A program made the translations under genes and the position numbers. DNA of 54,037 bases from an uncultured Candidatus Saccharibacteria bacterium (GTDB lineage Bacteria > Patescibacteriota > Minisyncoccia > Phycocordibacterales > PALSA-1337), in contig CAZNUY010000003.1 in NCBI GenBank assembly GCA_964576745.1, forward strand, positions 1 to 54,037, read 5' to 3'. The notes beneath the pieces are model-generated. The model had not been told where the DNA came from. It was given only the letters and a program-made list of their open reading frames with translations, and made no database searches. Shown here piece after piece: positions 1,507-42,503 of the stretch (the first letter of the stretch is position 1; the number at the start of each line of letters is the position of its first letter).

Positions 1507-1834
1507 GTAGCGAGAATCGAGTCTTACAGACTCTGTACAGGTTTCGCATGACTAGACCTTTTGCAAAGGCCTAGTCATATGCTCAACCTTTTCGATTCTC
1601 GCACGCACGCCCGCAGGGGCGTGCTTACCCGCACTTTCACTCACTTCGTTCGTTCAAGTGCGGGTAGCGAGAATCGAGTCTTACAGACTCTGTACAGGTT
1701 TCGCATGACTAGACCTTTTGCAAAGGCCTAGTCATATGCTCAACCTTTTCGATTCTCGCACGCACGCCCGCAGGGGCGTGCTTACCCGCACTTTCACTCA
1801 CTTCGTTCGTTCAAGTGCGGGTAGCGAGAATCGA
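1507..1834. repeat. two identical 157-bp tandem units (1509-1665, 1666-1822), each a 138-bp ORF-less core plus a copy of the tRNA-Gly 3' end
   Basis: Units identical by eye. The 19-nt tgcgggtagcgagaatcga is present at 1659-1677 and 1816-1834 (inside the tRNA). A 14-nt remnant lies at 1507-1520. Confidence 0.9.
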
Positions 1835-1886
1835 ACTCGCGTCTCAACCTTGGGAAGGTCGCATTCTACCACTAAACCATACCCGC
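1816..1886 (-). tRNA. tRNA-Gly (anticodon CCC)
   Basis: Reverse complement reads GCGGGTA..TAGTGGTAGAAT..CGACC-TTCCCAA-GGTTG..GCGAGTTCGATTCTCGC-TACCCGC-A. The cloverleaf arms pair. CCA is not encoded. Confidence 0.9.
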
Positions 1887-6210: not shown

Positions 6211-8667
6211 TTATTTTTTCTCTTTTACTGGAAGACCGGTACGCTTTTCTGGTGTTGACGCTGGAATCTTCTCATCGTTGAAGATCGATCTGCCACTTCG
6301 CAAATTTGATAGAATAAGAGCTACTTCTTCGTTATTTTCGTTTGTCTTTTGTAGATCTTCAAAAACCTCTATTGCTTTGTCGAAATCGCGCAATCTAGCA
6401 AAAGACAATCCTAGGAAGTACTTTGCATTGGCATAATCTGCCTGATACTTGATCGCTTCAATGAATGCTTGAGATGCTCCGTTGTAATCCTTTGCGTAAT
6501 ACCTAAGAAGTCCCAATTGGAATAACAAAACTGGATTCTGTGGATTGAGTTGCACAGCAATACCAGCTGCAATAACTGCATTTTGAAGATCTCCTTTGGT
6601 TGCATATATTTGCGAAAGCAAAAATACTGCATCTAGATAATTGTTTTTAACCTGAAGTGCCCTACCAAGATCCTTTATTGCATCATCATACTTACCATTC
6701 TTTGCTTCAAAATTTGCCAAATTCAAATATAGTGATGGATTGTACGGATTGAGGCTAATTGCGCTGTTATACGAAGCCAAAGCATTTTCATAACCATTTT
6801 GCATTTTTATACTTGCAGCCACCTCAGCAACTCTCGCTTCAGAAAGATAGTTATAATAATTTTTTGGATTGTATGCAGTTGCCTTTTTTGCATCAGCAAT
6901 ACCACGATTGAGTACATTATTGATGTCCGTAAGAATTGCTTGAGTAGTTGATGCGCTCGTCGTATTTGTAATTGTACTAGCCAACTTTTGAGCTGTAGCA
7001 ATAGAAATCTCAGCTTTGGATCTCCAATATACATCTGACTCATTGAGCTTGAGAGCAGTTGTGAATGCTTGATCTGCTTTTTCGAGATTTTGGTTTGTCT
7101 CGAATTCGCTAAGTCCGCGAGCAAAATAAGTAAATGCAAATATCTTCTTTATGTGCATAAGTCCAAAAATAATGAGAACTAGAATGACAACTGATACAAT
7201 CGAAGGGAATAATTTGGAGACTAATGTCCCTGATGATGGAATATATACTCTCTGATTTACAAGTCCATATGCGACACTTAGACTCACAAATAATGCAGTG
7301 ACGACAAAAGTTAACAAAATTATTGCGTGCGTTGGAATTGTGACAAATAACATCAACCAAAGGAATGTCATCATTGTAAATGAAGACAATAACATGTATC
7401 TCTTTTCAGAATCATCTGGTAATTTTTTTAGAATTCGTGTTGATAAGATTCCTAAAAATACAAACAAAAGTATCCACAATATTGTACCAACAGTACCATG
7501 AGAGGCTATGAAAGTAGGGACAAATCCAATACCGTACTGAAACTCTGTTCCCCAAGCATTTGTAGTGTTGATAATAAGTGGCTTGTAAGCCTGATATGCG
7601 TCAGAAAATCCGTTTGATCCGACTCCAAATAGAGGATAATTTTGCAAAACAGATGAAGTAACATTTAGGGTCGTTTGCCAAGGCAAGAATATTTCGAAAT
7701 GGGCTATCTTTAGTTTTGTCACGACTGAATCAAGAGTCGTAGGTCCACGATAAACTAATAGGGATAAAATTACAAAAGCAACAACAGGAAGAAGTGGTAA
7801 TGATTTTATGACTCTTTTTGTAAGTCCAATATTTTGACTAGATGTTTTATTCCATTTTTCAGAAAACAGAATTATGGATAAACCGAGAAATACGATAGCC
7901 CCAACATACCAAACTCTAATATCAGCGACGAAAATAATCCCCAAAGTTGAGATTGTGGTCAGTGTCCAGAAAATTATTTTCATCTTTTTTGATAATTGGA
8001 GAAAATTCAATCCAAACAAAGAAATGATGAGAATGAGGGTTGAGAATATTGCCAAACTATACCAACTACCCAGCATAGAAGACGTCAGGGTGGTAAAGAT
8101 ACCAAAGCTCAAGAATGTCTCACCAAAGACGACCCTCAAAAAGTGGAATAAAAATAGAACCAAGTATGACGAGACCATAGCAAAATACAAGACTATAGCT
8201 CGCTCTCGCTGTTTTTGAATCAAGTTATATGTTACAAAACCAGATAAAAACAGAGTTAACAAAAAGCCAGTAGTCAATACTTCGAAGGCCTGACCAAAGA
8301 ATGATTTTGCAAAGTGGAGACTGAGAGTCGAAGATATAACAATAGAAACAAGAAGCAGAACACTTGTTCTACACAATGATGTTGGTGGCAAAGAAATCTT
8401 TCTTTCTTTGAGAACAACAAAAGTTAAGAAGACTGCTGAAGCAATAACTCCTATATTGATCACGAGAGACTTTATCAATTCTAATGGTATATACTTACTA
8501 AACCAAAAAGATAATGGTGCTAGAATAATCGTAACAAGGAGAATATAAAAAGCGATATTATCTAGCTTGCCAGAATCAGACTTCACGGATGAGCTATTAG
8601 AAACTCCCATACCCGATCCATCTTTAACTCCAAAACTACTGTATTTATTTTCCAGTTCATTATTCAT
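6211..8667 (-). CDS. polytopic membrane protein, O-antigen ligase/Wzy-like core with C-terminal TPR repeats
   Basis: 818-aa ORF. About 500 aa of TM helices are followed by repeated TPR-like A..Y..A..L.P.N units. Confidence 0.55.
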   Translation of the reverse strand: MNNELENKYSSFGVKDGSGMGVSNSSSVKSDSGKLDNIAFYILLVTIILAPLSFWFSKYIPLELIKSLVINIGVIASAVFLTFVVLKERKISLPPTSLCRTSVLLLVSIVISSTLSLHFAKSFFGQAFEVLTTGFLLTLFLSGFVTYNLIQKQRERAIVLYFAMVSSYLVLFLFHFLRVVFGETFLSFGIFTTLTSSMLGSWYSLAIFSTLILIISLFGLNFLQLSKKMKIIFWTLTTISTLGIIFVADIRVWYVGAIVFLGLSIILFSEKWNKTSSQNIGLTKRVIKSLPLLPVVAFVILSLLVYRGPTTLDSVVTKLKIAHFEIFLPWQTTLNVTSSVLQNYPLFGVGSNGFSDAYQAYKPLIINTTNAWGTEFQYGIGFVPTFIASHGTVGTILWILLFVFLGILSTRILKKLPDDSEKRYMLLSSFTMMTFLWLMLFVTIPTHAIILLTFVVTALFVSLSVAYGLVNQRVYIPSSGTLVSKLFPSIVSVVILVLIIFGLMHIKKIFAFTYFARGLSEFETNQNLEKADQAFTTALKLNESDVYWRSKAEISIATAQKLASTITNTTSASTTQAILTDINNVLNRGIADAKKATAYNPKNYYNYLSEARVAEVAASIKMQNGYENALASYNSAISLNPYNPSLYLNLANFEAKNGKYDDAIKDLGRALQVKNNYLDAVFLLSQIYATKGDLQNAVIAAGIAVQLNPQNPVLLFQLGLLRYYAKDYNGASQAFIEAIKYQADYANAKYFLGLSFARLRDFDKAIEVFEDLQKTNENNEEVALILSNLRSGRSIFNDEKIPASTPEKRTGLPVKEKK

Positions 8668-8757
8668 TACATTTTATAAATTAAGCTATTTAATGCATTT
8701 ATTATAACAGAAAATGAAAAAAGAAATCCACAACATAATCTAATATCATAAGACAAG

Positions 8758-8786
8758 AAAATCCCACCTTTTTGAGGTGGGATTTT
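8758..8786 (-). terminator. intrinsic terminator hairpin downstream of the RNase P RNA (symmetric, could act on both strands)
   Basis: aaaatcccacc / ggtgggatttt form an 11-bp stem with a 7-nt loop; a T-run follows on the minus strand. Confidence 0.6.
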
Positions 8787-8789
8787 CAT

Positions 8790-9153
8790 TTAAGTCATAC
8801 CATAAGCCGAATTCTGTTGCATATGTCAGACATATGCATGACAACCATTTGTCTGGTCCCAAAATTGCTTTTGAGATCGAGCGGTTCTTTTTTGATAAGC
8901 CTTGCGGTTCTCAAAAACACGACCTTGCACCGAAGTAAGGATTTTGCCGTTGCAATCCTGTGTTACCACAGGCTTCATCCGTATTGCTACGGAGCTATTG
9001 TCTTTCGACTAAAGCGTCACTGTTCGCACCTCTGGTTATTAACCTGACGGGTGTTACCCGCTACTTGTTTCCACCGACTTGCGTCAGTGGCGGTGTTCGG
9101 ACTTTCCTCCCTGTATCGCAAGCGACACAGAGCGGTTGTCTGGTACAACTATC
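8790..9153 (-). ncRNA. rnpB: RNase P RNA, bacterial type
   Basis: Minus strand carries the P4 strands GGGAGGAAAGTCCGAAC and ACAGAATTCGGCTTATGG. P1 pairs AGTTGTACC with GGTATGACT. The region is more G+C-rich than its flanks. Confidence 0.8.
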
Positions 9154-9207
9154 GGAATTATACCACAAATGATAGATTTTGCAATGTGGTGATATTAGTT
9201 CTACTAG

Positions 9208-10035
9208 CTATTTTTCCAACCTTTTAACAAGTTGCTTATATGCTTTGGCGTTATTTACTGCAATCCAACATTCTGACGGTATACTGACAGCAGACAATTG
9301 TTTCTTTTTTGCTAATACCGGAAACAATACACTTTCGAAATCCGCTTTTTTATTTAGATCAAAATATTTTTCAAAGTAAGGATGAACTCCTGGCCCAAGA
9401 ATGGTTATACCGATATGTGTTGGTATTGGAATAGCCGGATACATCTCAATTTGATGTACGACATTGTTAATAATTTTCATACCAGTATAAGTATATGGTG
9501 TCTCCTCAACTACCACGACCGTGGCTAATTTATTTTGATCTAAGTGCCCCTGAGCAATATACCTTGGAAAATTACCCTTGAAATCCAGAATAACATCATC
9601 AGGATTATGAACAATAAAATAATGATTCTTTGGGATAAAATCTTGAATTATTGCATTTTTTATAGCACCACCCTTACCTACCGGCTTTTCGGGATCATAT
9701 GAATATCTGATGCTTACACCAAACTTAGACCCATCACCGAGGACATTTTCTATTGAATGAGCATTGTGAAAAACTGACGCTACAAAATTCTTGAAACCTG
9801 CGTCTCGATACATCTTTATTGCCATTTCAATCATTGTCTCACCATTTGGCAAAAGAAAAGCATTTTTATTCACCGCTTGACCATTTGTAACCTCAGAGAA
9901 TCGAGAGCTCTCACCACCAGCCATGAGAACAATTGTTGTATTGCTTACAAAATTATCCCAAACTTTATCATTAATTTTTTTGGGCTTCTTTACTCGATTA
10001 ATCTTTTTTCGTAGCTCTTTTAGTGCCTTCTTCAT
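9208..10035 (-). CDS. sugar-phosphate nucleotidyltransferase family protein
   Basis: 275-aa ORF with N-terminal LMAGGESSRF (GGxxxR NTP-transferase loop). Confidence 0.55.
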   Translation of the reverse strand: MKKALKELRKKINRVKKPKKINDKVWDNFVSNTTIVLMAGGESSRFSEVTNGQAVNKNAFLLPNGETMIEMAIKMYRDAGFKNFVASVFHNAHSIENVLGDGSKFGVSIRYSYDPEKPVGKGGAIKNAIIQDFIPKNHYFIVHNPDDVILDFKGNFPRYIAQGHLDQNKLATVVVVEETPYTYTGMKIINNVVHQIEMYPAIPIPTHIGITILGPGVHPYFEKYFDLNKKADFESVLFPVLAKKKQLSAVSIPSECWIAVNNAKAYKQLVKRLEK

Positions 10036-10087
10036 ATTGTGTGTTGTATTACAAAAATGGATATATCTATATCCATTTTTGAATCTA

Positions 10088-12412
10088 TTAGACTATTTCG
10101 CAGACACCAGAGACACAAGCGAGTTCCTTTTTGAGATCTGTTTCGTTCTGAATTTCGTAGGTAATAATTTTTGAATAATCGATATGTTCCATCCTTTTTG
10201 CCAATTCTTTGTATGTCTTTTCATCTATGGCTTCGTATGGAGCTAACTTGTAAACCACGTCTTCACGAGGCAAGAAAGAAAGTCCGCCAACAATATCCCA
10301 GTTTGAATATACCCAATTTGCAACCGCTATCCATTCATCATTACCAACAGAAATTGTTACGGATGGATTGTGTTCTGTATAATTTTCCTTGACCATTTTC
10401 CAATACTCCAACTGTTCGATAGCTGTCTGATCATCTCGGAATATCGAACCACTTGGGGCTTTGACTGGAAATTCCAAAACATAAGTGGTGGCATTTTCTG
10501 GCGACTGACCAACCTCGGGAAAATGAGGCACACCTTGATCTTTAAGCATTTTGAACAATGAATCTGTGGCAGATATACGAATCCTTCTGATGTAGAATTT
10601 TGAATGTCGTGGATGCATGCCGGAAGAACAATCTACAGTTTGTGAAAGAGTACCTGAGGGCTTAACACAAGTAATTGCGGTTGATTCGCCTATACCAAAT
10701 CTTTTGGCATATTCTTTGTTGATTTTGATAGCTTCTGCCTTGAGTTTGCGCATAACTTCTGGCTTTCGAACTACTGGGGAATCCCATTGTCCTGTTATAG
10801 AAACACCGAGAAGCCTCTCTTTTTCGCAATGTTCCTTCCATTCTTTTGAAAGATATGGGAAGTTGGTGAGACTGGACTGGTATGTACCGAGAATAGTTGC
10901 AATACGCATTTTCTTGAGTAATGTTGCTTCGGTATCCTCTGCTCGAGCAACAATCTCTGATAGGTTACAAAATTGTTTTGATTGGAGAATAATCTCGCCA
11001 CAAGGATTTGTGCCCATAGGGCCAACTATATGATTGCCTGTCTGATCAAAATATCCTTTGTACTCTTTTAAAACTTTTATTCTCCTTTCTGGTAAGGTAC
11101 TAGCTAACGATCCACGATTGAATATACCTCTCTCACCTGAACGACTCTCAATAAGAGCCATCCATTCTTTTAGGAATTCTTCATTACTTGGCTTATTTAT
11201 ATAGACAGCGGAATTATTGGATAATGCTCTATGAGGATGAGTCATGTAGAACGCACCTTTCTTTGCATCACGAACTAGTTCATCATTGAGGTCTGAAAGA
11301 GAAATCATAGCACTGCGCCTAACACCACCAGAAACAACACAATCACCAATCATACAGATAATATCGTGAAGATCGATGGTGCGCAGTCTCCTGCCCTGTC
11401 TCGCAAGCATCACCTGGCGTGCAAAAGAAAGCAATCTCATAAGTGGTGCTGGGCCAGATGATTTGCCACCCATAGTCTTGAGTCTTGCACCTTCTGGACG
11501 AAGCTGTGAAAAATCAAATTCTATGTCTTTACCAGACGCCCAGGTCTCCATACCCAGAGTGAGCGAATCTGCCCAACCCTCCTTACTATCTGGAATAACA
11601 TGTGTAGGAAGTTTCTCACCAGTCTGCATCATAATCTGTGGAAAACGTTCTACGTTGGCACTTTCTACTGCCCAACCAGCACCAGTTCCACACATTGATA
11701 TATACATAATCTCAGCAAGATCCTGGAAAGACTGCGGTGCTATAAATGAACAATTATATGCACAAACATTGGTAGCTGATGCGGCCTTACCAGCAAACTG
11801 AAGTAATCTCATAGAAGGCATCGCTTGGTGACTAAGAATAGCTTCGCGAATCTCTTTGTATTCGGTATCTTTGAGTTTATTGCCTAAATTCTCTTTCATG
11901 AAAGCAACATAACGATCGACTGTTTCGATCCAGGTCTCTCTTCGACCTTCATTATCCATCCATCTAGAATACGAACGATAATAGACAAATTCACCCAAAG
12001 CATTGCGGAAGTATTTTTTGGAATCAGTAGCTAATTTGCGGACACGCTCTGGAACTTCTACTCCTTGTAGACGCAACTTCGAGCGCTCTTCGCGGTATAA
12101 GACATAATGTTTGGCTGCTTTGACATAATCAGAACGCATCAACTCTTGTTCGACAATATCCTGACAACCTTCGACGGTAGGGACGAAATTGTTAAATTTG
12201 CGTTTAATTCTTAGTAATTCAGAATAGACCTGATTTGCTACAACCTTGGCTTCTTCTATAGTTCCCTCTCCGACTGAAGACATGCCTTTCCAAACGGCAT
12301 TAACAATCTTTTCTAGATCAAAAGGTACTATTCGACCATCTCTTTTTATAATCGTAGGGATAGAAGGGGCCTTGACCGCTCCTTTGGCGGTTGTTTTTTT
12401 CTTTTTTGGCAT
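10088..12412 (-). CDS. nrdJ: class II (adenosylcobalamin-dependent) ribonucleotide reductase with N-terminal ATP-cone
   Basis: 774-aa ORF; ATP-cone IIKRDGRIVPFDLEKI; active-site TNPCGEI..FCNLSEI; C-terminal Cys pair CVSGVCEIV. Confidence 0.85.
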   Translation of the reverse strand: MPKKKKTTAKGAVKAPSIPTIIKRDGRIVPFDLEKIVNAVWKGMSSVGEGTIEEAKVVANQVYSELLRIKRKFNNFVPTVEGCQDIVEQELMRSDYVKAAKHYVLYREERSKLRLQGVEVPERVRKLATDSKKYFRNALGEFVYYRSYSRWMDNEGRRETWIETVDRYVAFMKENLGNKLKDTEYKEIREAILSHQAMPSMRLLQFAGKAASATNVCAYNCSFIAPQSFQDLAEIMYISMCGTGAGWAVESANVERFPQIMMQTGEKLPTHVIPDSKEGWADSLTLGMETWASGKDIEFDFSQLRPEGARLKTMGGKSSGPAPLMRLLSFARQVMLARQGRRLRTIDLHDIICMIGDCVVSGGVRRSAMISLSDLNDELVRDAKKGAFYMTHPHRALSNNSAVYINKPSNEEFLKEWMALIESRSGERGIFNRGSLASTLPERRIKVLKEYKGYFDQTGNHIVGPMGTNPCGEIILQSKQFCNLSEIVARAEDTEATLLKKMRIATILGTYQSSLTNFPYLSKEWKEHCEKERLLGVSITGQWDSPVVRKPEVMRKLKAEAIKINKEYAKRFGIGESTAITCVKPSGTLSQTVDCSSGMHPRHSKFYIRRIRISATDSLFKMLKDQGVPHFPEVGQSPENATTYVLEFPVKAPSGSIFRDDQTAIEQLEYWKMVKENYTEHNPSVTISVGNDEWIAVANWVYSNWDIVGGLSFLPREDVVYKLAPYEAIDEKTYKELAKRMEHIDYSKIITYEIQNETDLKKELACVSGVCEIV

Positions 12413-18326: not shown

Positions 18327-18348
18327 TTGTGACCCTACGGGGAGTCGA
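18327..18348. repeat. distal att-like direct repeat (copy of tRNA-Glu 3' end)
   Basis: Identical to 36710-36731. Confidence 0.85.
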
Positions 18349-18500
18349 CCTCGCCTCTCACTCGCTACCCGCTCGTTCGGGCTGGTCACCGGCTCGGCTG
18401 TTTCGCTTGCTAGCGAAACATGCCTCCGCCGTTCGCCTCCCCGACGCTCGCGCGCAGGCGCGAGCTTAGGCTCACACTCGCTACGCTCGTGTGACCTATT
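18349..18500. other. G+C-rich ORF-less structured module with a split reverse complement of the tRNA-Glu 3' end around a GCAG-loop hairpin
   Basis: ttcgcctccccg (18432-18443), AC, hairpin gctcgcgc-GCAG-gcgcgagc (18446-18465), T, taggctcaca (18467-18476), then the degenerate target gtgtgaccta (18489-18498). Confidence 0.6.
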
Positions 18501-18584
18501 AGCTTGGCTTTCAGAACTTACTAAACAAAGAGATTATATCAATTTGGCTCTAACTAATCTATCAGGTATTCTTGCTGAATAAAG

Positions 18585-35048: not shown

Positions 35049-36773
35049 ATGAAGATGAATATGAAAGATGAGGAAAAACTATTTAAAGACATTGAGAACG
35101 GAAAATATCGTGAGTTCTATTTGGTCTATAATCGAAAAAGCACTGATGAACCTGACAATCAAAAGAACTCTATTTCATATCAAAAGAATCAGAATGTCCG
35201 ATTTGCAAAGTTAGAAGGATTGCCACTAGCGCCTCTCACCCTCAAAAGTTTTTGTGCAGACGGCATTATTTCAGAAAAACATTCAGGCTTTAAGGAAGAT
35301 AGTGAGATTACTATCACGAATGAGGGATTGGTCCAATATAAAATCGAGAGACCAAAATTCCAGAAACTTTTAATGTATTTAAGCCGAGGACTTTTTAAGG
35401 GTATTGTTTGTCTTTGTTGGGACCGAGTAAGTAGAAATAAAGGTGATGATACGGTTGTAAGAAAGCTTATGAAGAATGGCATTGATGTTCGGTTCGTCTT
35501 TGCCAAATACGACAAAACTAGCTCTGGTGAACTTCATATGGACATTGATGGCATGTTCTCGCAGCATCACTCACGAGTAACAAGTGAAAAAGTGTCTTTA
35601 ACAATTAAGCACGCTAGAGAGAAAGGTAAATGCACTAACCGAGCTCCTATCGGTTATCTCAATGAAGGAAATATGGATTATAAGCCGCTGGACCCTGAAA
35701 GAGCGCCCATAATCCGTAGACTTTATGAGCTTTATAGTACCGGAGATTGGAGCTTATCTGATCTAGCTCGATATGCAAATGAGCAAGGCTTAACTACCGT
35801 TGCTATGAGACGTAAGAGAACAGAGGAAGAGAAACTCGCTGAAGAGGAAGATGATAATTTGATAGATATTCCAAAAGTATCTCGTCCAATTACCCAAAAT
35901 CATGTTCACCGGATGCTGACTAGTCCATTTTATATTGGAATGGTCCCTGCTGGTAATGGAAAACATACTCGAAGTTCAAGCCATCAACCATTAGTACCGG
36001 TAAATCTTTTTAATGATGTACAGCAACTATTAAGAAAGAACAAAACGAGTATTCACTATACTGAAAAGTTAGACCTTCCATTACGAGGGTTGGTTCGATG
36101 CGCTCTGTGTCAACGAATTTATACTCCTTACGTGAAAAAAGGCATTACTTATTACAGTTCACGATGTGTTGCTGGTTGTGAGAATAAGACTAAAAATTTT
36201 AATTTCGATTATATTGCTGACAAAATTGGTGAAAAGATAGCAAAACTTCACTATACCGAAGACGAACTAGCTGAAATGGATGCTCGCAGCAGTACCCAAA
36301 TATCTTTATTGGAAGAAAAACGATCAACGAAAATAGAAGAGATGGAAAGAAAGAAGAAAGTTCTTCGTGAGCAACTAAAATATATTAGGGTTGATAGACT
36401 TCCGCTTTTACATAGTGGGGCTTATACACCTGAAGGTATTGTGGCTGAGGAAAAGAGACTTGAAGGAGAGATTGCAGCACTAATGACTGACGAACAAGTT
36501 TCAGAGGAAGCAATGTCAGAAACAGTGAAGGACATAACGCAACTTTCAGAACTCCTAAAAAGGTCCGTACCTTATTACGATTTTGCAAAACCACACAAAA
36601 AAGAGTTGATTGCCCGTTGTATCTTTTCAGAACTCTTGTTGTCCGGAGATACGTTGCAACATAAGGTTAAAAAAGGATTTGAGGCCTTTGAAAACCGTTT
36701 TGTTGCGAATTGTGACCCTACGGGGAGTCGAACCCCGATTACAGCCTTGAGAAGGCCGTGTCCTAACCATTAG
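35049..36773 (+). CDS. large serine recombinase (integrase)
   Basis: 574-aa ORF; resolvase-type catalytic region YLVYNRKSTDE...SYQK and CWDRVSRN; recombinase domain; zinc-ribbon CALCQRIY...; coiled-coil tail. The last 20 codons and the TAG stop are antisense to tRNA-Glu. Confidence 0.85.
   Translation: MKMNMKDEEKLFKDIENGKYREFYLVYNRKSTDEPDNQKNSISYQKNQNVRFAKLEGLPLAPLTLKSFCADGIISEKHSGFKEDSEITITNEGLVQYKIERPKFQKLLMYLSRGLFKGIVCLCWDRVSRNKGDDTVVRKLMKNGIDVRFVFAKYDKTSSGELHMDIDGMFSQHHSRVTSEKVSLTIKHAREKGKCTNRAPIGYLNEGNMDYKPLDPERAPIIRRLYELYSTGDWSLSDLARYANEQGLTTVAMRRKRTEEEKLAEEEDDNLIDIPKVSRPITQNHVHRMLTSPFYIGMVPAGNGKHTRSSSHQPLVPVNLFNDVQQLLRKNKTSIHYTEKLDLPLRGLVRCALCQRIYTPYVKKGITYYSSRCVAGCENKTKNFNFDYIADKIGEKIAKLHYTEDELAEMDARSSTQISLLEEKRSTKIEEMERKKKVLREQLKYIRVDRLPLLHSGAYTPEGIVAEEKRLEGEIAALMTDEQVSEEAMSETVKDITQLSELLKRSVPYYDFAKPHKKELIARCIFSELLLSGDTLQHKVKKGFEAFENRFVANCDPTGSRTPITALRRPCPNH
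36710..36731. repeat. tRNA-proximal att-like direct repeat
   Basis: Identical to 18327-18348; covers the last 19 nt of tRNA-Glu plus 3 nt. Confidence 0.85.
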
Positions 36774-36784
36774 ACGATAGGGCC
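36713..36784 (-). tRNA. tRNA-Glu (anticodon CTC)
   Basis: Reverse complement reads GGCCCTA-TC-GTCT-AATGGTTA-GGAC-A-CGGCC-TTCTCAA-GGCTG-TAAT-CGGGG-TTCGACT-CCCCG-TAGGGTC-A, 72 nt, and all arms pair. Confidence 0.9.
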
Positions 36785-41894: not shown

Positions 41895-42503
41895 ATGTCT
41901 TACCACCACATATACAATCGCGGTGCGCACAAAGCTCCAATTTTCCATGAAAATTCTGATTATATTCGCATGTTGAAACTACTCTATGTTGCGAATTCTT
42001 CCTCAGCTTTTCAACTCCGAGACCACGGAGAAGCTAATATCTTCGAAATAAATCGTTCGGACACACTTCTTGATATTGTCTGCTATTGCTTGATGCCGAA
42101 CCATATACATATAGCAGTAAAATCCAAAAGTGATCTTGAAAACGACCCCAGTATCACAAAGTTTATGCATAAACTATGCACTGGTTATTCTATGTATTTC
42201 AATTTGAAGTACAAACACTCCGGGACACTTTGGGAAGGTGGTTTTAAGAAAAAAATTGCAGATGACGAATTAGATTATATAAAAATTCTCATAAATTACA
42301 TTCACCTAAATCCATACAGCATCAAAGAACCTCAAATGACAAAAGAAGCCAGAAAGGAACATCCTCAAGAAGCTTTTGAATATTCTAAAAATTACGAATA
42401 CTCGAGCCTAAAAGATTATCTCGGCGAAGTTAGACCCCAAGGCACTATCCTTTGCGATAGCGAACTCAAAATATGGCTCAACACTGAGGCGCAACCTCAG
42501 TGA
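41895..42503 (+). CDS. REP-associated tyrosine transposase (RAYT, IS200/Y1 HUH family)
   Basis: 202-aa ORF; HUH motif MPNHIHIAV; downstream YIHLNPY Tyr motif; flanked by REP doublets. Confidence 0.8.
   Translation: MSYHHIYNRGAHKAPIFHENSDYIRMLKLLYVANSSSAFQLRDHGEANIFEINRSDTLLDIVCYCLMPNHIHIAVKSKSDLENDPSITKFMHKLCTGYSMYFNLKYKHSGTLWEGGFKKKIADDELDYIKILINYIHLNPYSIKEPQMTKEARKEHPQEAFEYSKNYEYSSLKDYLGEVRPQGTILCDSELKIWLNTEAQPQ

Follow-up and report, generated by a model that had tools for sequence, protein, structure and literature searches.

What are two identical, apparently protein-less units doing directly behind an intact tRNA gene, and how did they come to stand there? The locus in question belongs to an uncultured Candidatus Saccharibacteria bacterium (contig CAZNUY010000003.1, positions 1–54,037; this whole stretch of 54,037 nucleotides is referred to as the window). 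Here, the tRNA-Gly(CCC) gene is followed by two 157-bp units, each of which repeats the 3′ end of the tRNA and also contains, in two pieces, the complement of that end. The relatives of lepA place the window in Patescibacteria, among Paceibacteria/“Taylorbacteria”-like genomes. The units belong to a new family of protein-less, structured and horizontally mobile cassettes, which mimic and complement the tail of their tRNA and exist in at least two target versions. The explanation favoured below, for which the chances are judged to be about even, is that of a non-autonomous tRNA-tail cassette encoding a structured RNA and moved by recombination at the repeated tRNA end.

The array occupies positions 1507–1834, with a period of 157, 2.1 copies, 100% matches and no indels, and was the sole array reported by Tandem Repeats Finder; in a repeat search, 1507–1663 and 1664–1820 were 100% identical. 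The tRNA-Gly(CCC) gene beside it (1815/1816–1886, minus strand) is intact according to ARAGORN and Rfam (tRNA, 68.3 bits). Its T-arm reads GCGAG-TTCGATT-CTCGC, the acceptor 3′ strand is TACCCGC and the discriminator A is at position 1816; CCA is not encoded. Since the gene lies on the minus strand, the array is the 3′ trailer of the tRNA, and the parts of the array are described below on that strand. The 19-nt tRNA-Gly end, TCGATTCTCGCTACCCGCA, is found at 1659–1677 and 1816–1834; no further match with up to three mismatches occurs elsewhere in the window and none is expected in shuffles. The repeats, complements and hairpin details of the array are absent from shuffled sequence.

For comparison, about 50 related tRNA-Gly(CCC) loci from Paceibacteria, labelled L001 onward, were used. 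Both units of the window represent what is called type A, in which a leader is followed by two tRNA-complementary arms placed around a hairpin (hp1), a domain P2, a hairpin P3 and the terminal 19-nt copy of the tRNA end. The proximal unit, delimited by repeat searches, comprises 157 nt (1659–1815); the distal unit (1507–1658) is identical to it, its terminal tRNA copy stopping after ...CTCGCTAC, at 14 nt. The leader CTTGAACGAACGAAGTGAGTGAAAGT (1790–1815, with a second copy at 1633–1658), recognised in alignments, is kept in every type A variant, except for one T missing in L002; in L011, it is present alone, as a remnant. Arm 1, AAGTGCGGGTA (1783–1793 and 1626–1636), includes GCGGGTA, the acceptor 5′ strand of the tRNA, and has two possible pairing partners, TACCCGCACTT in the tRNA end before it and TACCCGC in the copy after it. 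Arm 2, GCGAGAATCGAA (1748–1759 and 1591–1602), consists of the T-stem 5′ strand GCGAG and the T-loop complement AAUCGAA, and forms helix P1 with the terminal tRNA copy. Both arms were found by an inverted-repeat search and in folds. Between them lies hp1, GCACGCCC-CUGC-GGGCGUGC, with 8 bp (1762–1781 and 1605–1624), which in a tRNA-like fold stands in place of the D-arm, the anticodon arm and the variable region. The P2 domain (1696–1746 and 1539–1589) has an AGGUU/AACCU stem and a long hairpin; the P3 hairpin GAGUC(U)-GUA-(A)GACUC (1676–1690 and 1519–1533) abuts the terminal tRNA copy, which at 1659–1677 extends from T-loop T55/C56 to discriminator A73. The truncated copy at 1507–1520, where TCGATTCTCGCTAC meets GTTATTTGATTTGCAGTATAAT, is an old junction, common to L001, L002 and L092.

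The complementarity is exact: positions 1591–1602 and 1748–1759 complement 1824–1835 over 12 nt, and positions 1626–1636 and 1783–1793 complement 1656–1666 and 1813–1823 over 11 nt. The longest reading frames in a unit encode 30–56 aa, and indels break them in the relatives. A small protein was rejected as the product of the unit, as these frames are not conserved, the P2 hairpin is replaced in relatives and there are indels of 9 and 7 nt. An initial annotation, made from the letters alone, had described two identical 157-bp units, full 19-nt tRNA ends at 1659–1677 and 1816–1834 with a 14-nt remnant at 1507–1520, exact split complements of 12 and 11 nt with an 8-bp hairpin between them at 1605–1624 and 1762–1781, and a core without protein; each of these details was recovered by the searches, and no convincing open reading frame (ORF) was seen in the core.

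The same annotation allowed for the tandem arrangement being an assembly artefact. The unit-to-unit junction comprises P3, the full tRNA end and the leader, and just 14 nt of it are common to any single-copy path; it recurs in L003, an independent assembly of the same species, and as a different sequence variant in L084 and L085. As such a junction cannot be made from single-copy paths and recurs in independent assemblies, there are genuinely at least two copies. Short-read assemblies do not fix their exact number securely, and a collapsed loop could account for the single copy seen in L001.

A family of modules at two tRNA genes

ORF-less structured modules of about 140–170 nt lie behind tRNA-Gly(CCC) in about 10 of the approximately 50 loci and are of two types. 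Type A comprises three sequence variants: that of the window, L001 and L003; that of L002; and that of L037 (the same as L084) and L085. Type B modules, which are GC-rich, of similar length and in the same place, were found in L006, L022, L033, L040, L047 and L088–L093, while most relatives with an identical tRNA are empty at this place. The two types have a common plan: a leader, a segment complementing the 3′ part of the tRNA, two hairpin domains and a terminal tRNA copy of about 19 nt. The terminal copy and its complement track the T-stem variant of the host, whether CTCGC, CTCGG, CCCCG or CTCCC. A metagenome pattern scan gave one further type A genome (L084/L085); scans of viral contigs with the type A and type B patterns gave 0 matches, and literature searches yielded no description of such modules.

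Occupied sites can be compared with unoccupied ones. In L084, a clean filled site, two units and a complete tRNA end are followed by TACTTCGC... and a terminator hairpin; in the unoccupied L007 and L030, the same TACTTCGC... terminator hairpin comes directly after the tRNA. The window can likewise be compared with L004, L087, L094 and L100, and in the last two, which are distant relatives, the gene gap directly follows tRNA-Gly. The module always has the tRNA on one side and a terminator-like hairpin on the other (L084, L022, L033), and in 10/10 variants it is situated in the tRNA transcription unit, in tRNA sense. L092, which keeps the synteny of the window (DivIC-like protein 95% identical, left flank 88% identical in DNA), contains a type B module, a full tRNA end, a two-gene island of 1.67 kb and the truncated junction of CGATTCTCGCTAC with GTTATTTGATTTGCAGTATAAT, as in the window; the type B module and the island are separated by three successive tRNA-end copies. 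The serial insertion footprint at a tRNA 3′ end that had been read from the array is borne out both by this accretion and by the filled and empty sites. The L092 island (8601–10265), located between full and truncated tRNA-Gly ends, carries a 152-aa ORF and a DUF5677 ORF, with no recombinase.

Among near relatives, the content of the site turns over: two type A units in the window, a type B module and an island in L092, and nothing in L087 and L004. The type B cores of L092 and L006 are 100% identical, with lepA 75% and gap 85% identical. The DNA of L002 (1–2708, aligned with 88–2574 of the window) is 76% identical left of tRNA-Gly and 97% identical to the right of it, in the coiled-coil ORF and gap; judged by this alignment, L002 is a mosaic genome with the switch at the tRNA/module. 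Tandem doubling arose independently in two type A lineages. To go by these comparisons of loci, the cassette has been gained, lost and exchanged between lineages and duplicated in tandem. The A/B/empty turnover, together with cores that are identical although their genomes have diverged, rules out a vertically inherited tRNA paralogue, which was also considered. Behind the type B module of L006 (6340–6365, minus strand) there is a patchwork copy of the tRNA end, CGATTCTCGCT + GATTCTCCCT + GATTCACG..., which combines two T-stem variants and the start of a second leader; it suggests an eroded tandem array with parts from different donors.

A third member of the family (18329–18510, minus strand; fold −90.1 kcal/mol, z = −5.3) is present in the window and is targeted to tRNA-Glu(CTC). 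It consists of a degenerate tRNA-Glu end TAGGTCAC (18491–18498), a leader, arm 1 GTGTGAGCCTA (18467–18477), hp1 GCTCGCGC-CTGC-GCGCGAGC (18446–18465), arm 2 CGGGGAGGCGAAC (18431–18443), a type B core (18342–18439; 93 bits, E = 1e-18 with a covariance model of the core) and an exact 20–22-nt copy of the tRNA-Glu end (18329–18348), all on the minus strand. The tRNA-Glu(CTC) gene whose last 20–22 nt are thus repeated was located by ARAGORN at 36712–36784 (minus strand), 18.4 kb from the copy. The module has 160 nt and lies directly upstream, in tRNA sense, of the end copy. Its 5′ half is type A-like, with the leader, arm 1, an A, an 8-bp hairpin with a CTGC loop, GT and arm 2. As this copy joins a type A 5′ half to a type B core, types A and B constitute a single modular family whose arms can be exchanged. 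Here, they correspond to tRNA-Glu and not to tRNA-Gly (GUGUGAGCCUA at 9/11 positions, CGGGGAGGCGAAC at 12/13). A copy at another tRNA with matching flanking segments, which the initial annotation had proposed as a check, is provided by this module, with both arms retargeted. The covariance model of the type B core gave this one match in the 54-kb window and no other away from tRNA ends in about 700 kb of related loci; the architecture was not found at 60 Arg/Phe tRNA genes in the loci or in the 500 nt that follow the window’s tRNA-Glu gene. An extended −10-like motif, TGATATAAT (18530–18538, minus strand), was recognised by eye some 30 nt before the Glu module and could give the module its own promoter.

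The local gene order around the tRNA-Gly array is TPR, murJ, lepA, a DivIC/FtsB-like gene, tRNA-Gly(CCC), the array, a 102-aa coiled-coil ORF and gap. Look-ups for exact matches to the DivIC-like protein and the Mur ligase gave none. A 138-nt long hairpin is located at 2506–2643, between lepA and the DivIC-like gene; it has an outer stem of about 25 bp and two inner hairpins (−76.4 kcal/mol, z = −12.7), and is 77–94% identical in L004, L087 and L088.

Fold, covariation and strand

The stretch 1659–1789 folds at −76.7 kcal/mol (z = −10.8), and the structure is conserved through compensatory change. In type B (six variants), 93.7% of cells are paired and both sides are changed in 25/55 pairs, compared with 11.7 ± 2.3 in shuffles, none of which reaches the observed value (0/500), and at most 4 with slid partners. 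In type A (three variants), 96.2% of cells are paired and both sides are changed in 10/45 pairs; shuffles give 3.3 ± 1.5, again with 0/500 reaching the observed value, and slid partners at most 1. The hp1 stem exists in four compensating versions (the window, L002, L084 and the Glu copy), with the CTGC loop constant in each, as are the flanks, an A before the stem and G-T/C after it; the type A versions of the stem are GCACGCCC, GCAGTCGC and GCGTCCGC. The conservation of the hairpin and its spacing in relatives, on which the first interpretation depended, is evident from these versions. The sequence of the P2 hairpin is wholly replaced in L002 and L084, with pairing retained, and P3 of L084 is GGUCC...GGACC, with three compensatory pairs and the UGUAA loop retained. 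Constant in type A are the loops CUGC and UGUAA and the first 35 nt. Type B modules have a 4-nt bulge instead of hp1 (GCG-ACGA-GGUG + CCGAG + AAUCGAAC) and otherwise follow the same logic.

The tRNA-sense strand is more stable than its complement in 7/8 variants, by 4–12 kcal/mol, and G·U pairs are located on this strand. By these comparative measures, the unit is a selected structure, read in tRNA sense. Rfam scans of the Gly units, five type B loci and the Glu copy at E <= 10 returned nothing relevant and no guide or bridge RNA.

What had been described as a split antisense copy of the target consists of the acceptor 5′ strand, the T-stem 5′ strand and the T-loop complement; the transcript can therefore form a three-way junction resembling a tRNA minihelix. 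When the arms pair with the unit’s own terminal copy, an acceptor/T-stem-like helix of 7 + 11 bp closes a three-way junction with P2 and P3. In the alternative helix, the same arms pair with the preceding tRNA end over 23 bp. This is the three-way junction with 23 paired target nucleotides that had been predicted, and it is indeed possible, being the form preferred by energy minimisation of the tRNA with its trailer.

Proposed recombination at the tRNA tail and competing explanations

According to the favoured explanation, cassettes would lodge at the T-loop-to-3′-end segment of particular Paceibacteria tRNA genes, between the tRNA and its terminator, and the RNA would be co-transcribed with the tRNA or, in the Glu copy, transcribed from its own promoter. 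The terminal tRNA copy would pair with the two internal arms to give the acceptor/T-stem-like helix P1, with hp1 replacing the tRNA body and P2 and P3 replacing the T-loop; a P1-like helix is a plausible substrate for RNase P, RNase Z and the CCA-adding enzyme, which would set free a stable, structured RNA. The complementarity is most simply accounted for by a tRNA-like cis helix within an RNA transcribed together with the tRNA. Gain, loss and exchange would take place through recombination in the repeated tRNA end, with no enzyme encoded by the cassette. The fixed left edge and variable right edge of the repeat fit two mechanisms. A site-specific recombinase could act in trans. Host homologous or short-homology recombination could also operate, the tRNA body and the terminal copy then serving as the two arms of the incoming DNA; this requires no enzyme from the module itself and would explain why the right edge varies, why L002 is a mosaic and, through unequal exchange, how units doubled in tandem, but alone it leaves the common left edge of both core types unexplained.

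The left edge of the repeat is at T-loop C56 ± 1 in 10/10 copies, and the right edge follows 11, 13, 20, 20, 21, 27, 29 or 41+ nt further on. A fixed left and a variable right edge are characteristic of attachment sites in the T-loop (class II of Williams 2002, as cited in PMC1762012). Where inserts are stacked, partial tRNA copies between them are a known sign of successive integrations (PMC9897764; bioRxiv 10.1101/2020.12.28.424599).

Large serine recombinases abut tRNA 3′ ends for Glu (window, 35049–36773), Gly (L005, L062), Gln (L104) and Lys (L112); the coordinates in the relatives are L005 6570–8024, L062 6491–6631, L104 10001–11520 and L112 10001–11522. Those of the relatives belong to a large Patescibacteria family, with more than 3500 relatives at E <= 1e-20, and the end of the gene overlaps a convergent tRNA Gly-CCC, Gln-TTG or Lys-TTT. 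In L104 and L112, the recombinase gene directly follows a rolling-circle Rep gene (REP_ORF2-G2P, Phage_CRI). Immediately upstream of the tRNA-Lys(TTT) gene of L112 are repeats of its first 12 nt (11552–11563) and first 9 nt (11629–11637). In the window, the segment 18329–36784 (18.4 kb) is bounded by tRNA-Glu(CTC) and the exact copy of its 3′ end. It includes a 574-aa large serine recombinase (35049–36773, plus strand), whose reading frame runs into tRNA-Glu, a purM-like/purD/purN/purL cluster with 51–57% GC, compared with about 36–41% elsewhere, and several ORFs without Pfam matches; this is probably an integrated island of composite make-up, whose purine-synthesis cargo is foreign. The sole tRNA-like sequence at the inner edge of the island is TAGG(G)TCAC, and we infer that the recombinase island was inserted later, between tRNA-Glu and an older module. 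No tRNA repeat of at least 10 nt was found within 10 kb of the serine recombinases of L005, L062, L104 and L112. The large serine recombinase was rejected as the obvious mobiliser: the Gln, Lys and Gly islands are without a long repeat or module, and with only TAGG(G)TCAC shared in the window, the link is circumstantial. That the module is an integral end of recombinase islands is not supported either, as the 1.67-kb island of L092 and the islands with Rep and recombinase genes are without it. A 202-aa ORF at 41895–42503 (plus strand) has an IS200-like Y1 transposase domain (PF01797, E = 6e-7); it is 40 kb off and has no visible link to the module.

Several observations weigh against the favoured explanation. 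The helix with the unit’s own copy is shorter than the 23-bp alternative, with 17–20 bp in L084 and 14 bp in the window lineage, in the latter because the last copy is truncated, and minimum-free-energy folds of the tRNA with its trailer choose the 23-bp form. The complementarity of arm 2 extends to G53/T54/T55, nucleotides present solely in the intact tRNA, outside the repeat on its left; arm 1 does not vary, not even in the window, L001 and L002, where it has no downstream partner; and the Glu copy retains the upstream pairing partner, TAGGUCACAC:GUGUGAGCCUA. As regards movement, there is no tyrosine integrase among 30 ORFs of the window, and the list of the 25 Pfam families with the most matches to 65 ORFs located downstream of tRNA-Gly in relatives does not include PF00589. 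Islands with large serine recombinases abutting tRNA genes are without long tRNA repeats and without modules, and recombination would have an awkward substrate in a duplex circle of 157 bp. The variants are few (3 + 6 + 1) and come entirely from metagenome assemblies, covariation cannot separate RNA from single-stranded DNA, and the transcript and the role of the RNA are putative.

The observations on arms 1 and 2 also count in favour of a guide. The initial annotation considered the layout closer to guide-type target recognition than to a protein-only attachment site. In a mechanism of this kind, which is considered unlikely, the arms around hp1, as RNA or folded single-stranded DNA, would pair with the 3′ part of the tRNA gene or pre-tRNA and direct a recombinase, nuclease or ribozyme acting in trans to insert the cassette. 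In its strongest form, likewise improbable, the module would be a protein-less programmable device, the arms pairing with the last 21–23 nt or so of a chosen tRNA and so selecting the insertion site; each insertion would recreate the target, and therefore arrays would grow. Retargeting of the arms on a conserved scaffold did hold up, as on the same scaffold the arms match tRNA-Gly in type A modules and tRNA-Glu in the copy at 18329–18510, and they follow the T-stem variants across hosts; the two independent origins of tandem copies are also in agreement with a guide. However, the arms are the tRNA’s own acceptor 5′ and T-stem 5′ strands with a T-loop complement, and any tRNA-like helix formed with the module’s own terminal copy would show equal complementarity. 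The complementarity is contiguous and on one strand, exactly as such a cis helix needs. No protein partner and no link to a known family of guide-using enzymes was found, the neighbours being the coiled-coil ORF, gap and the DivIC-like gene, and the Rfam scans gave no match to bridge RNA, omega RNA or another guide RNA family. Moreover, repeats that measure 11 to 41+ nt and vary in their right edge typify attachment-site or homology recombination and not known RNA-guided insertion. In L033, L040 and L047, the repeats agree exactly with the host but the arms fit imperfectly, which suggests that arms follow the repeat rather than choose the target. A guide, if real, would set this insertion system apart from those of IS110 bridge RNAs, of TnpB/IscB omega RNAs and of group II introns.

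A folded single-stranded DNA site would be, for instance, a single-strand origin of rolling-circle replication or a folded attachment site like CTX-phage attP or integron attC, in which an arm and the terminal copy recreate the tRNA gene end in duplex form for a recombinase of the host or a helper. The strand-specific structure, covarying stems and conserved loops suit this, the P1/P0 helices reproduce the tRNA gene duplex from the T-loop to the 3′ end, and the serine-recombinase islands of the clade carry rolling-circle Rep genes, so that single-stranded intermediates exist there. It is nevertheless rated as rather improbable: the islands with Rep and recombinase genes contain no module, the integron R′′/R′ consensus is lacking on inspection of the sequence, and the position in the tRNA transcription unit, in tRNA sense in every variant, is explained by an RNA role and not by a DNA role. 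The units might, finally, be functionless scars, either attL and attR leftovers of larger islands or a degenerate tandem tRNA-Gly paralogue, paired by unequal crossover. Islands that target tRNA genes normally leave behind partial tRNA copies and tandem accretion as debris (PMC9897764; tycheposons, bioRxiv 10.1101/2020.12.28.424599; T-loop att sites, PMC1762012), accretion is seen in L092 and in the tRNA-Glu region of the window, and L011 and L006 hold eroded copies. This origin is very unlikely and is largely refuted by covariation: 45–55 bp are kept through compensatory change across genomes, together with the loop sequences. In addition, the same two core types recur at two tRNAs, cores are 100% identical between diverged genomes, and the 3 + 6 + 1 distinct variants argue against an alignment made up of one recent clone. 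Hammerhead and other known ribozymes, group II domain V and integron attC were rejected for want of the motif or required neighbour; a retron, superficially similar in its closing helix and hairpins, was rejected as there is no reverse transcriptase in the neighbourhood.

If the favoured explanation of a mobile tRNA-tail cassette holds, the smallest integrative cargo of a tRNA gene can be a single folded RNA rather than a gene. Such a cassette would borrow the promoter, the terminator and probably the processing enzymes of the tRNA, and spread protein-free among the ultra-small genomes of the candidate phyla radiation (CPR). A structured RNA class absent from Rfam is added, and a conserved scaffold with arms rewritten for tRNA-Gly or tRNA-Glu makes the part of base pairing in the choice of integration site directly testable. 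For annotation, partial tRNA copies behind tRNA genes can mark RNA modules, not prophage scars. The tails of tRNA-Gly(CCC) and tRNA-Glu(CTC) are recombination hotspots in these reduced genomes, with a foreign purine-biosynthesis cluster at the Glu site.

Comparison with known systems

Element-encoded structured RNAs in which a scaffold hairpin is flanked by retargetable, target-complementary segments are represented by the IS110 bridge RNA, the guide and omega RNAs of IS200/IS605 elements and the exon- and intron-binding sites (EBS-IBS) of group II introns. The family differs from them in having no cognate enzyme gene in or beside the module, complementarity of 20–23 nt on one strand, and long direct repeats. 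It does not qualify as a miniature inverted-repeat transposable element (MITE) either, with repeats of 11 to 41+ nt and copies at tRNA ends only.

In E. coli, tyrT is followed by tandem trailer repeats of about 178 bp, each ending in the last 19 nt of the tRNA, and rtT RNA is released from the precursor. The tandem trailer units described here, each ending in about the last 19 nt of the tRNA, resemble this arrangement, by analogy only. The units gave no match to the RtT family at E <= 10 in Rfam, with no similarity in sequence or covariance model. To our knowledge, an internal complement of the tRNA end, retargeted copies at other tRNAs and signs of horizontal mobility are all absent from rtT.

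In tRNA-like RNAs, such as the tRNA-like domain of tmRNA, bacterial Y RNAs (PMC4201824) and viral tRNA-like structures (PMC8127992), an acceptor-like helix is stacked on a T-stem-like helix and the remaining RNA is inserted in place of tRNA parts, as in the family. In contrast to these RNAs, the T-loop itself is paired in the family, with two hairpin domains instead, and the helix copies the neighbouring tRNA nucleotide for nucleotide. ARAGORN found two genuine tRNAs only, and neither ARAGORN nor Rfam recognises the units or the Glu copy as tRNA-like.

The T-loop (class II) integrative elements targeted to tRNA genes (PMC1762012; tycheposons, bioRxiv 10.1101/2020.12.28.424599; tRNA gene fragments, PMC9897764) have a repeat from the T-loop to the 3′ end and restore the tRNA, as here. 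Newer inserts push older ones outward, with partial tRNA copies between them, and filled and empty sites coexist, which is also seen here. Unlike these elements, which measure kilobases, the modules have about 140–170 bp and carry no integrase or other gene; inside, they hold a conserved, covarying structure that includes a complement of the attachment-site (att) repeat. Cis-mobilisable elements (CIMEs; PMC5704250) are flanked by att sites, have no recombinase of their own, occupy a specific site and form arrays with autonomous elements, and the family is alike in these features. CIME-like arrays are seen in L092 (tRNA, type B module, repeat, 1.67-kb island, repeat) and in the window (tRNA-Glu, 18-kb recombinase segment, module, repeat). 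Candidate helpers are the large serine recombinases that abut tRNA-Gly in L005 and L062, whose islands show neither a long tRNA repeat nor a module. The Xer-exploiting IMEX elements share these features of CIMEs. Both kinds, however, are deletion derivatives or gene carriers with a known helper, whereas the family is essentially one structured module of the size of an RNA.

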